Counted from the stretch's first letter, positions 21,654 through 25,007 are shown. The stretch is DNA of 27,724 nt from Stellaceae bacterium (GCA_036264595.1 DATAQP010000172.1:1-27724), one strand, 5' to 3'. The notes: generated by a model from the letters alone, not told the origin. Numbers and translations are program-made.

Positions 21654-22430
21654 ATGCTCCGGGACGATGTTGTGGCGTCTTTCCGGCCCCGCCTTGCGAT
21701 CGGCTGGCAGCACCTGCGTATTGTTGCGCTGCTGACCTTGGCCGGGGTTGGCCTCGCCGGCACGCCAGCACTGGCGCAACGCTCCGCCGTGACCGTCGAT
21801 CAGGATGTCCTCGACGCACTCGGTCCGATCGATTCGAAGGCACAGCCGGGCAGCCGCCTCCGGCTGCACCTGCCTGTCCCCCCTGCTCAGCAGCGACCGG
21901 CTCCCTCGGCCGGCGCCAAATCGGCGCCCATTCAGGCCAACAGCCAGCCTTCCGCCGCCGCCAACCCACCACCGCCCGCGACGACGCCGCAAGCTGCCCC
22001 GGCGAAGCAGGCGTCGCTGCCGCCGTCGGCAACTACGATCCCCTCGGCACCGACGACGCCGGCTACCGCGGCCGAACCGCAAAGCGTTCCCGCCGCCGCC
22101 CAGGCGACGACGCCCCCGGTCGCCGAGCGCATTCTCTTTCAGCCGGACGAGGCGAATCTTGCCGACGACGCCAAGCAGGAACTCGACCGCCTCGCCGCGC
22201 GCTTAGGTGCGGATGGCCGGCTCTACGTTCAGCTCGTCGCCTATGCGAGCGGCAGCGGCGGCGATGCGAGCCAGGCGCGGCGCCTGTCGCTCTCGCGGGC
22301 ACTTGCGGCACGCAGCTACCTCGTCGACCACGGCGTCGAGATCAAGCAGATCGATGTGCGGCCGCTGGGCAATAAATCAGAGCCCGGCGCCTCACCCGAT
22401 CGGATCGATCTCGTCGTCACACAGCGCTAA
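21654..22430 (+). CDS. Exported Pro/Ala-rich protein with a non-canonical C-terminal OmpA-like domain (start uncertain: 21615, 21654 or 21672)
   Basis: Signal peptide (..LAGVGLAGTPALA-Q), low-complexity P/A/T linker, then ILFQPDEANL...VQLVAYAS...RRLSLSRALAARSYL...G...DRIDLVV. Confidence 0.8.
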   Translation: MLRDDVVASFRPRLAIGWQHLRIVALLTLAGVGLAGTPALAQRSAVTVDQDVLDALGPIDSKAQPGSRLRLHLPVPPAQQRPAPSAGAKSAPIQANSQPSAAANPPPPATTPQAAPAKQASLPPSATTIPSAPTTPATAAEPQSVPAAAQATTPPVAERILFQPDEANLADDAKQELDRLAARLGADGRLYVQLVAYASGSGGDASQARRLSLSRALAARSYLVDHGVEIKQIDVRPLGNKSEPGASPDRIDLVVTQR

Positions 22431-22510
22431 GCCGTGCTTGTTCCGCGTCATTTGGTCATAGATCGGGTTATAATCGAAATGGAGATGCCCTCAATCCTAG
22501 GAATGCTGTC

Positions 22511-23662
22511 TTGACCCGACCACGACGTTTCCTCAACCGCATGATCCTGTTCCTGGTCGCAGTCATCGTCGTTTGCGCGGTCATCGCACCGGCGCTCTAC
22601 AGCGCGTTCATGGGCAATCCGGCGCTCAACGGCATCATCATGGGCGCCATGCTGGTCGGCATCGTTTACATCTTTCGCGAGGTGATGCTGCTCAATCCCG
22701 AAGTCGCCTGGATCGAGAACTATCGGCGCAACCAGGGTGCTGGGGTGACCACTGCCAGCGCGACGCGCCTGCTGTCGCCGATGGCGACGATGTTCGGCGA
22801 GCGCAAAGGCGGCCGCGTCAGCCTGTCGGCCGTCTCGCTGCGCACGCTGCTCGACGGCATCGCCACACGGCTCGATGAATCGCGTGAGATCTCGCGCTAT
22901 TTCATCGGCCTCCTGGTCTTCCTCGGTCTGCTCGGAACGTTCTACGGCCTGCTTGAGACGCTGCGCTCGGTGGGTGGCGTCATCGGCACGCTGTCGATCG
23001 GCGCCGGCGATGTCGGGCGTGCCTTCAACGACCTGAAGAACGGCCTCCAGGCGCCGATCGCCGGCATGGGCACCGCCTTCAGCGCCTCGCTTTTCGGCCT
23101 CGCCGGCTCGCTGGTGCTCGGCTTCCTCGATCTCCAGGCGGGCCAGGCGCAGAACCGCTTCTACAACGATCTCGAGGAATGGCTGTCGAGCTATACGCGA
23201 CTGTCGGGCGGCGGTCCGCTGTCGGATGCGGGCGACGCTTCGGTGCCGGCCTATATCCAGGCGCTGCTCGAGCAGACCGCCGACAGCCTGGAGAATCTGC
23301 AGCGCATCACCGGACGCGGCGAGGAGAGCCGCATCGCCGCCAATGCCAGCATCATCACGCTGACCGAGAAGCTGGCCATGCTCGGCGATCAGATGAAGAC
23401 CGAGCAGAACCTGCTGCTCCGCCTGGCCGAGAATCAGATGGAGCTGAAGCCGGTGCTGACCCGGCTCGCCGACAGCGCCGCGTCGCGTGGCCAGGACGAA
23501 GCGCTGCGCGGCCATATGCGCAACATCGAGATGTATCTCGCGCGCCTCGCCGAGGATCTTTCGCAAGGGCGGGCCCAGACGATCCAGGAGGTGCGCAGCG
23601 AGATCCGCCTGCTCGCCCGCACGATCGCCGCCCTCGCCGAAGAGGCCGACCGGGCATCGTAA
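22511..23662 (+). CDS. MotA/TolQ/ExbB-family proton channel subunit with long C-terminal helical tail (non-flagellar)
   Basis: TTG start after AGGAA. N-terminal hydrophobic pair, LVFLGLLGTFYGLL and GMGTAFSASLFGLAGSLVLGFL channel helices, then a ~150-aa heptad-rich tail. Confidence 0.85.
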   Translation: MTRPRRFLNRMILFLVAVIVVCAVIAPALYSAFMGNPALNGIIMGAMLVGIVYIFREVMLLNPEVAWIENYRRNQGAGVTTASATRLLSPMATMFGERKGGRVSLSAVSLRTLLDGIATRLDESREISRYFIGLLVFLGLLGTFYGLLETLRSVGGVIGTLSIGAGDVGRAFNDLKNGLQAPIAGMGTAFSASLFGLAGSLVLGFLDLQAGQAQNRFYNDLEEWLSSYTRLSGGGPLSDAGDASVPAYIQALLEQTADSLENLQRITGRGEESRIAANASIITLTEKLAMLGDQMKTEQNLLLRLAENQMELKPVLTRLADSAASRGQDEALRGHMRNIEMYLARLAEDLSQGRAQTIQEVRSEIRLLARTIAALAEEADRAS

Positions 23663-23666
23663 GCGC

Positions 23667-25007
23667 ATGTCCATCGCCCGCCGCTCCCGTCGCACCGAGG
23701 TCAATATCTGGCCGGCTTTCGTCGACGCGCTCGGCCAGCTCGTCATCGCGATCATCTTCCTGCTGCTCATCTTCACGGTGGCGCAGTTCCTGACCACCGA
23801 CGCCTTGTCGGGCCGCGATCAGGCGTTGCAGCGTCTGACCCAGCAGATCAACGAGCTCACCGACCTGCTCAATCTCGAGAAACGCAGCAACGACGATCTG
23901 CGCCTCAACGTCGCCCAGCTCTCCACCGAACTACAGAATTCGAGCGCGGCGAAGGACGCACTGACGACGCGGGTCGCCGAGCTGGCGGCGCGGGCACAGG
24001 ACGAGACGGCGCGCGCCGACCGCCTCAACGCGCAGCTCGCCGACGCCAACCAGGCAGTGTCCGCCGACAAGGAGAAAGTCGAGCTGCAGCTGCGCGAGCT
24101 CGAGAGCCTGCGACGCGACATCGAGGCACTGCGCCAGGTGCGCACGGACCTCGAAAGCAAGGTCGCCGACCTTGCCGCCGCGCAGCAGAAATCGCAGAGC
24201 GATCTCACCGCCGCCCGTGATCGCTCGAAGGAGCTCGAGGCCAAGCTTTCGAGCGATCAGGAGCGCACGGCCATCGCCCAGAAGGAGATCGACAAGCGCG
24301 ACATTCGTCTCGGTGAGCTCGCCGCGCAGGGCCAGCAGGCGAACGAGGCGCTCGCCGGCCAGCAGAAGCTCACCAAGGAGGCGCAAGACCGCGTCGATCT
24401 GCTCAACCAGCAGATCGCCGCACTGCGCGAGCAGCTGCAGCGCGTCTCGGCGGCGCTCCAGCTGACCGAAAACCAGAGCAAGGACCAGCAGGTCCAAATT
24501 GCCGATCTCGGCCGCCGCCTCAATCTCGCCCTCGCCAGCAAGGTGGAAGAGCTCGCCCGCTTCCGCTCCGAGTTCTTCGGCCGGCTGCGCGAGGTGCTCG
24601 GCGACCGGCCCGATATCCGCGTCGTCGGCGACCGCTTCGTCTTTCAGTCCGAGGTGCTGTTCTCGCAGGCGAGCGCCGATCTCGGCGACGACGCCAAGGC
24701 CCAGCTCAAGCCGGTGGCCGCGGCGATACGCGAGCTCGTGCCCAAGATTCCCAACGATCTCAACTGGGTGCTGCGGATCGACGGGCATACCGACCGGCGA
24801 CCGATCACGACGACGCAATTTCCCTCGAATTGGGAGCTGTCGACCGCCCGCGCCATCTCGGTCGTCAAGTACCTCGTCGAGCAGGGCGTGCCGGCGGAAC
24901 GGCTGGCCGCCGCGGGTTTCGGCGAGTTCCAGCCGCTCGATCCGCGCAACGACGAGGTCGCCTATCGCCGCAACCGCCGCATCGAGATCAAGCTGACCGA
25001 CCGCTGA
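23667..25007 (+). CDS. MotB-like protein: TM helix with conserved Asp, long coiled coil, C-terminal OmpA/MotB peptidoglycan-binding domain
   Basis: ATG 23667; IWPAFVD(20)AL TM motif, ~250-aa coiled coil, VFQSEVLF...RIDGHTD...NWELSTARA...RNRRIEIKL. Confidence 0.9.

Follow-up and report, generated by a model that had tools for sequence, protein, structure and literature searches.

What does a gene pair resembling the subunits of an ion-driven motor do when it lies among housekeeping genes? The question is raised by a stretch of 27,724 nucleotides from a Stellaceae bacterium (GCA_036264595.1 DATAQP010000172.1:1-27724; in the following, the window is this whole stretch), in which a sequence-only reading had singled out three consecutive plus-strand genes. 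These encode an exported OmpA-like protein, a MotA/ExbB-type channel subunit, here called A (22511..23662), and a MotB-type partner, here called B (23667..25007). The features listed in that reading, namely the open reading frames, a TATAAT hexamer, a 4-nucleotide gap between A and B, and Asp20 and the GHTD motif of B, were all found where they had been placed. Drawing on sequence and fold similarity to known motors, on conserved residues, on the linkage and distribution of the genes and on a predicted dimer of B, all reported here, we lean towards the view that A and B constitute an ion-driven, probably proton-driven, motor of the 5:2 MotAB/TolQR/ExbBD/ZorAB superfamily, and that they form a housekeeping branch of their own which is almost wholly alphaproteobacterial.

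The A and B subunits

A is numbered throughout by a 373-residue form starting at ATG 22541, the form used as query in most analyses. Against the Pfam MotA_ExbB model A reaches 12.9 bits, under the gathering cut-off of 22.9, and the orthologue in genome G069 is undetected by the same model at E 0.01. The best matches of A are the ZorA models of PADLOC (ZorA1 8.5e-12, ZorA3 7.9e-11), and all 54 of the 54 aligned diverse A homologues match ZorA1/ZorA3 as well (best 1e-15). The curated NCBIfam ZorA models, on the other hand, leave A far under their cut-offs (19 bits vs 100 for ZorA_2). When 201 Pseudomonadota were searched for true ZorA by the ZorA1 model, a single partial match was recovered, and the kinship was judged from hidden Markov model (HMM) and fold scores. 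A look-up in the ESM Atlas returned only the clusters of the family itself.

The AlphaFold2 (AF2) model of A, calculated on the homologue alignment with a mean predicted local distance difference test (pLDDT) score of 86, is all helical and contains no strands. Two hydrophobic helices occupy the N-terminus (residues 2-23 and 27-63, by DSSP of the model), and the cytoplasmic stretch between the helix bearing the second transmembrane segment (27-63) and that bearing the third (97-150) holds one short helix, 79-86. The LGLLGT and GMGTAFSSS segments are located on two long helices, the former segment containing the invariant T133 and the latter S181/S183, positions comparable to the Thr147/Ser184 filter of ZorA (PMC11946911). 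Foldseek matched the model to TolQ, ZorA and ExbB, each with a probability of 1.00. Likewise, the membrane fold of the superfamily was recovered at VIA Z scores of 10.5-11.8 over 180-196 residues, led by ExbB (11.8), Shewanella ZorA (11.7, at 17% identity) and TolQ (11.6), while the flagellar stators scored lower, at 8.6-9.0 (MotA 9.0, PomA 8.6-8.7). For all-helical models a Z below ~13 is not decisive alone, and the fold call is backed by the ZorA HMM matches. Alignments to MotA start at residues 1-6 of the model, thereby including the first helix, and those to ExbB, TolQ and ZorA at 13-24. These starting points argue for a topology of four helices as in MotA, with a core closer to ExbB, TolQ and ZorA. 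A is thus a channel of the MotA/ExbB/TolQ/ZorA superfamily and not a flagellar MotA. The best structural matches for its core, TolQ and ExbB, belong to non-flagellar envelope motors, which however lack the long tail and the rod of A and B. Their partners TolR and ExbD carry the ExbD/TolR fold (PF02472), whereas B carries an OmpA-type domain. The window has its own tolQ (980-1717; 123.7 bits) and tolR (497-976; 97.3 bits), recognized by Pfam models in a ybgC-tolQ-tolR group at 497-2204 on the minus strand.

Beyond the membrane core, the model is disordered at residues 228-234 and continues into two tail helices, 237-315 and 320-372. The predicted cytoplasmic helical tail (residues 237-372, ~135 residues; 23249..23656, plus strand) ends in the motif E-I-R-L-L-A-R-T-I, which is strongly conserved. 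The MotA/ExbB-type subunit with a long C-terminal tail that had been proposed from the sequence is hence substantiated by both HMM and structure searches. Among 220 homologues the length of the tail is near constant, with a mode of 179-180 residues from GMGTAFS to the C-terminal motif, and 143 in the Komagataeibacter group. No 7-residue periodicity was found in this length for the 220 homologues, and heptad quantisation of the tail was rejected.

B (446 residues, from an ATG at 23667) matches the NCBIfam family NF006543 (PRK09039.1-2, 'peptidoglycan-binding protein') with 450.6 bits, above the cut-off of 305. A short Arg-rich segment at its N-terminus is followed by a single transmembrane helix with the motif WPAFVD, in which Asp20 (codon GAC, 23724..23726, plus strand), near the cytoplasmic end of the helix, is the candidate ion-binding residue. 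Across 40 orthologues W15, V19 and D20 do not vary, and the position of Asp20 is analogous to those of ZorB Asp26 and MotB Asp32 (PMC11946911). At the opposite end of the protein, an OmpA/MotB-type peptidoglycan-binding domain (residues 331-437; 24657..24977, plus strand; Pfam OmpA E 9e-18) contains GHTD at 373-376 and NWELSTARA at 388-396. Its nearest solved relatives are MotS, MotB and PomB (E 1.7e-28 to 1e-17), with ZorB at 3e-7. The transmembrane Asp20, the long coiled coil and the intact peptidoglycan-binding domain that the sequence-only reading had attributed to B are consequently all present.

The two ends are connected by a periplasmic coiled-coil rod (residues 43-267; 23793..24467, plus strand), predicted to be a parallel homodimer. 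The prediction for two copies of B scored 0.52, as compared to 0.00 for the best control, and thereby passed the mark of the tool. Of 30 proteins solved as one-chain pairs 20 reach this mark, and of 23 solved as single chains 1 does, calibration counts that are only roughly valid here, a custom alignment having been used. In the predicted dimer the same residues touch in both copies with an unbroken 3-4 (a/d) spacing over residues 13-267, the transmembrane helix continues directly into the coiled coil, and further contacts are formed between the two wall-binding domains at 368-446. Pfam MotB_plug was not reported for B. The model hence suggests that B is a parallel, in-register dimer with a rod of ~225 residues, which at ~0.15 nm per residue would extend ~33 nm.

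The length of the rod is far from fixed. Among 61 orthologous B proteins the distance from the transmembrane Asp to GHTD ranges from 218 to 567 residues, a 2.6-fold span, and 43 of the 61 distances are congruent to 3 modulo 7. The strength of period 7 is 0.52, as opposed to at most 0.28 at the other periods from 3 to 12. The 61 proteins were taken from the fetched loci and are relatives rather than independent samples, and the same test on unique distances agrees (0.44 vs at most 0.23). We take the 7-residue steps to mean that a single coiled coil runs without a break from one fixed dimeric end to the other, and not as evidence for a set length. The variable part of the rod lies at about residues 75-170, and the rods of the orthologues would measure 13-65 nm. 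The 2.6-fold range argues against a fixed periplasmic ruler, a role that had been suggested for the coiled coil and which is weakened by the 218-567 residues separating the two motifs.

The third gene, directly upstream of A (21615..22430, plus strand, as open reading frame and translation; alternative ATG start at 21654), encodes an OmpA-like protein with a signal-peptide-like N-terminal stretch ending in ALA-Q (judged by eye), a Pro/Ala-rich linker that varies between homologues, and an OmpA-like domain at the C-terminus (Pfam OmpA E 3.7e-11, residues 174-257), bearing out the exported Pro-rich protein noted earlier. The 45 aligned homologues conserve a V.VD..VL motif after the likely cleavage site as well as the C-terminal domain, in which AYA.G occupies the position of GHTD and LSLSRALA is retained, pointing to a conserved but divergent domain of the wall-binding type. 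The gene lies directly 5' of A in 48 of 80 related loci (tblastn E<=1e-8), and the same arrangement recurs in Novacetimonas, Komagataeibacter and one Parvibaculaceae genome.

Two domains of the wall-binding type in one module, together with a long rigid dimeric rod as predicted for B, are also what would be expected of a static tether, in which A/B and the OmpA-like protein connect peptidoglycan, and perhaps the outer membrane, with the inner membrane at the poles, the channel residues being kept for assembly rather than for ion-driven movement. The orthologues are indeed polar (PMC6570709). A pure tether would however not need Asp20, T133 and GMGTAFSSS, which are invariant or nearly so down to 33% identity, and a 2.6-fold range of rod lengths is ill-suited to a spacer of defined length. 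We consequently regard a tether as improbable.

Distribution and kinship with flagellar and Zorya motors

The distribution of the pair was assessed in 201 alphaproteobacterial genomes drawn evenly across the class, among them the unpublished genome G040, where neither A nor FliF was found. Once three weak matches had been dropped, 131 of these genomes have A, the B family exceeds the NF006543 cut-off in 127, and FliF exceeds its cut-off in 134. Both A and FliF are found in 90 genomes, A without FliF in 41, FliF without A in 44, and neither in 26; A and flagella are thus essentially independent. Outside the class, A was detected in 2 of ~150 other Pseudomonadota of a phylum-level sample. The two homologues (G420:C11:621572-622303, E 5e-71; G509:C18:4593-5444, E 1e-44) may reflect transfer or mis-binning. 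Within the class, the Acetobacteraceae-level family that contains Acidisoma was sampled with 121 genomes, 109 of which have A, and a library of representatives at 50% identity comprises 560 A clusters at E<=1e-30.

The linkage of the pair is equally persistent. All 80 fetched related loci have A followed by B in the same orientation, most of them with efp-suhB upstream and many with rpmE and hsp20 downstream. The sequence-only reading had described similar pairs near efp/suhB/rpmE in other alphaproteobacteria with only generic annotations; conservation at this position is in this way corroborated, the names in use being generic or wrong. Many relatives (among L022-L079) have 1.3-3.6 kb extra between B and rpmE. 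A is retained also in genomes of 0.8-1.1 Mb, and in several small genomes (0.8-2 Mb), G044 (L098, L099), G192, G125, G005 and others, A and B are distant from one another or located on separate contigs, in contrast to the 80 loci, which come from larger genomes. In a 1.1-Mb genome with unlinked A and B the neighbours are an ABC ATPase gene and the gene of ribosomal protein L25, and no new partner gene was found beside either subunit. In the control Caulobacter genome the B family match stays below cut-off, and the A-B pair appears to be missing from Caulobacter as judged by this match.

Public records name A 'flagellar motor protein MotA', which would make the pair a paralogue of MotAB serving the flagellum as a spare stator or as one with a special task. 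The resemblance to MotAB, PomAB and MotPS is real: A has four transmembrane helices, and B combines a single transmembrane helix carrying an Asp with an OmpA-type wall-binding domain that is MotB/MotS-like. Furthermore, the genome of the window, a metagenome-assembled genome of 86.6% completeness, possesses FliF and FlhA elsewhere, so the earlier statement that flagellar genes are absent stands for the locus and not for the genome. The distribution nevertheless contradicts a stator. As many as 41 of the 131 A-positive genomes are without FliF, which shows that the pair is not confined to flagellates, 44 FliF-positive genomes lack A, and the pair is present in the non-flagellate Komagataeibacter and Novacetimonas. 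Moreover, flagellar stators possess an expanded cytoplasmic torque-generating domain between the second and third transmembrane helices and a plug plus linker in the B subunit (PMC12505986), while A, itself under the Pfam MotA_ExbB cut-off, has a short cytoplasmic loop at this position and in B a coiled coil replaces the plug and linker. Finally, a complete genome of the same family as the window has a separate, distinct MotA_ExbB gene ~3 kb from fliF, and its A orthologue goes undetected by that Pfam model. We give the stator interpretation very little credence.

There is also a likeness to Zorya. ZorA5B2 is the core of Zorya anti-phage systems (PDB 8QYD, 8VVN; PMC11946911), and it shares with A-B the transmembrane Asp of the B subunit, the Thr/Ser pair in the last two helices of the A subunit, the helical cytoplasmic tail of the A subunit, and a B subunit that binds the wall as a dimer and has no MotB-type plug. 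The superfamily membership with a ZorAB-like layout that was claimed at the outset accordingly finds support from HMM matches, fold, tail and wall anchor. There are also clear differences: A carries an extra N-terminal transmembrane helix relative to ZorA, ZorB is without a coiled coil where B has one of 225 residues, and the cytoplasmic domain of Zorya-type A subunits is distinguished by additional beta-sheets (PMC12505986), of which the strandless model of A has none. That the pair is itself a Zorya-type defence system, as its best defence-library matches, the ZorA and ZorB models, might imply, deserves scarcely any credence. Zorya is a mobile island with ZorC-G, whereas the A-B pair is syntenic, part of the core genome and near-universal rather than patchy. 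No adjacent genes of the Zorya effector types (ZorC/D, ZorE, ZorF/G) were found near the pair in the window or its relatives, and A reaches 19 bits against the NCBIfam ZorA cut-off of 100; taken together, this already contradicts a defence system. The independence from FliF, the housekeeping neighbours and the separate MotA beside fliF in a relative together uphold the proposal that the pair belongs to neither a flagellar nor a defence island, and we conclude that the system neither drives flagella nor forms a phage-defence island.

A different role for a housekeeping relative of Zorya is that of a sensor of envelope state, where distortion of the wall or outer membrane, felt via the rod and head of B, would switch on ion flow, and the rotating tail would pass a signal to a regulator in the cytoplasm, one that controls growth, division or the stress response, instead of doing mechanical work in the envelope. 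For ZorAB, detection of a perturbed envelope with signalling via the tail has been put forward (PMC11946911), and A is closest in sequence to ZorA. The constant length and conserved C-terminal motif of the tail are as expected of a specific docking surface, and the locus is loosely linked to genes of stress and cell cycle (hsp20 and the DUF1465 gene). No effector or regulator gene is however conserved beside the pair in the related loci, the beta-sheet that marks Zorya-type A subunits is missing from the model of A, the wall-binding domain of B is closer to MotB than to ZorB, and no stress phenotype has been reported. All in all, we see a sensor as rather unlikely.

Komagataeibacter orthologues and a possible mechanism

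Experimental data on the family come from a single source, Komagataeibacter hansenii, for which a 'MotA' of 348 and a 'MotB' of 321 residues were described by Jacek et al. 2018/2019 (PMC6315621, PMC6570709; review PMC7347698). The locus of Novacetimonas cocois reads suhB, OmpA-like gene, A (348 residues) and B (321 residues), lengths that match those reported (PMC6570709), and its A shares a 90% cluster with 'flagellar motor protein MotA [Novacetimonas hansenii]'. This N. hansenii protein is 48% identical to A of the window over its full length (E 2e-94). The matching lengths, the shared cluster and the sequence identity together establish that the K. hansenii 'MotA/MotB' are orthologous to the pair of the window. 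The order suhB, OmpA-like gene, A, B is common to Novacetimonas and Komagataeibacter genomes, and Komagataeibacter B is likewise named 'peptidoglycan-binding protein'. Compared with the window, the tail of Komagataeibacter A is ~36 residues shorter and the rod of B much shorter (321 vs 446 residues in total).

K. hansenii has no flagellum, and the authors call the partner that receives the energy unknown (PMC6570709, PMC7347698). On overexpression the cells were elongated or formed chains and the colonies spread more widely (PMC6570709, PMC7347698), C-terminal green fluorescent protein (GFP) fusions were polar (PMC6570709), and disruption mutants were viable with denser cellulose (PMC6570709, PMC7347698). 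The papers treat both genes as motility genes and describe phenotype, not mechanism (PMC6315621, PMC6570709). The description of the pair as poorly characterised therefore holds in that no molecular function is established, the K. hansenii work having yielded phenotypes only, and fails in that orthologues have been studied. Searches of the literature under the family name, by stator or Zorya likeness, and in combination with transposon sequencing (Tn-seq) yielded nothing on the A-B family, and a 2025 mBio paper on stator evolution does not single it out. That the pair might be among the Rgs polar-growth proteins of Sinorhizobium meliloti was considered and rejected, as RgsA-H and RgsS are without MotA/ExbB or OmpA/MotB architecture (PMC7327166).

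How might such a motor operate? A ring of A subunits would enclose the helices of two B chains that carry Asp20. Beyond the membrane, both chains would join in one parallel coiled-coil rod, with a dimeric domain of MotB type at its end to hold on to peptidoglycan. Ions passing the A/B interface would then make the ring rotate about the B dimer, itself fixed to the wall, and the output would be the helical cytoplasmic tail of A, constant in length and, as in ZorA, acting on a cytoplasmic partner. The exported, divergent OmpA-like protein encoded upstream may represent a conserved third component, residing in the periplasm.

Several points weigh against this interpretation of the pair as a rotary motor. 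The 5:2 stoichiometry, the rotation, the type of ion and the output are what we infer, and both a part for Asp20 and the proton-motive force in the phenotypes and the cytoplasmic partner receiving the output of the A tail are putative. A rigid rod of 33 nm exceeds the usual distance between inner membrane and peptidoglycan. The tail of A, at ~135 residues, is considerably shorter than the ~500 of ZorA, and, the model of A being that of a monomer, a pentameric tail bundle is hypothetical. Lastly, the K. hansenii phenotypes, coming mainly from overexpression and C-terminal GFP fusions, could be indirect.

Gene order at the locus and meaning for the family

The neighbours of the pair are housekeeping genes, as the sequence-only reading had proposed. 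On the plus strand, efp (20049-20615) and a suhB-type inositol monophosphatase gene (20660-21475) precede the OmpA-like gene, with a terminator-like hairpin (21537-21553) 3' of the suhB-type gene. B is followed after a gap of 61 nucleotides by rpmE (25069-25296, plus strand), and a scan of the window for terminator-like hairpins found none between B and rpmE, and one 3' of rpmE (25320-25332). Next come a DUF1465 gene on the minus strand (25348-25767; Pfam 2.5e-29), equivalents of which were detected downstream in five related loci (L022, L053, L070, L071 and L078), and an hsp20 gene on the plus strand (26003-26458). Between A and B the arrangement is tight: direct reading places the stop codon of A at 23660-23662, leaving 4 nucleotides before the ATG of B.

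The start of A is most likely TTG 22511, giving 383 residues. This placement is based on the alignment with relatives, which have an ATG exactly at the position of this TTG followed by the same Arg-rich N-terminal peptide, on an AGGA 8 nucleotides 5' of the TTG, and on homologues of 383-384 residues that span the whole of the longer form. The public gene call, 373 residues from ATG 22541, is probably 10 codons too short. The perfect TATAAT noted earlier is indeed present as sequence (22469..22474, plus strand), in the 80-nucleotide gap 5' of A, as a possible but unproven -10 element. Neither a matching -35 nor a sigma-70-like site came up around it in the consensus scan, and the region 5' of A does not align with close relatives, the hexamer not being conserved. 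A sigma-70 promoter at this position was accordingly rejected.

Further away, a minus-strand core block (497-5191) extends from a yebC-type regulator gene (4442-5191) over ruvC, ruvA, ruvB and a ybgC-type thioesterase gene (1698-2204) to tolQ and tolR. The distance from tolQ to the A gene is 16-21 kb in the window and in two other genomes (G069, G006), which places both motor loci within one large syntenic neighbourhood. At the other end of the window lies a second 4HBT-type thioesterase gene (26481-27086, minus strand), the open frame of which reaches upstream to 27722 in the list of open reading frames.

The 5:2 ion motor has four understood uses, flagellar rotation, Tol, Ton and gliding, with Zorya as a recent fifth. 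The A-B pair occurs in about two thirds of the sampled alphaproteobacterial genomes, including reduced and non-flagellate ones, and is routinely misnamed 'flagellar motor protein MotA'. Its apparent absence from Caulobacter may explain why it has not been studied. The present analysis adds a further member to the family, together with independent checks of the orthology with the K. hansenii genes, the heptad steps of the rod, the constant length of the tail and the predicted B dimer.

Our best guess for the cellular role is one at the cell pole, in division or in the envelope, and what the Komagataeibacter data suggest is a link with the cell pole and with the length or separation of cells. 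As a tentative extension, which we deem possible and no likelier than that, the pair may be a new functional class of 5:2 rotary motor beyond the four understood uses, a fifth in that count, and the housekeeping sister of Zorya: polar and wall-anchored, with a rigid coiled-coil stator shaft of 13-65 nm, and with a rotating tail of constant length. Through this tail, polar growth, division or the separation of cells in Alphaproteobacteria would be made to depend on the proton-motive force or on envelope state, Zorya possibly being a mobilised derivative of such a machine. The heptad-quantised, variable-length rod provides a simple experimental handle, through changes of ±7 as compared to ±3/4 residues. 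Working out the output of the pair would reveal a new job for this type of motor, explain the cell-shape and cellulose phenotypes of Komagataeibacter, and possibly uncover the origin of Zorya.

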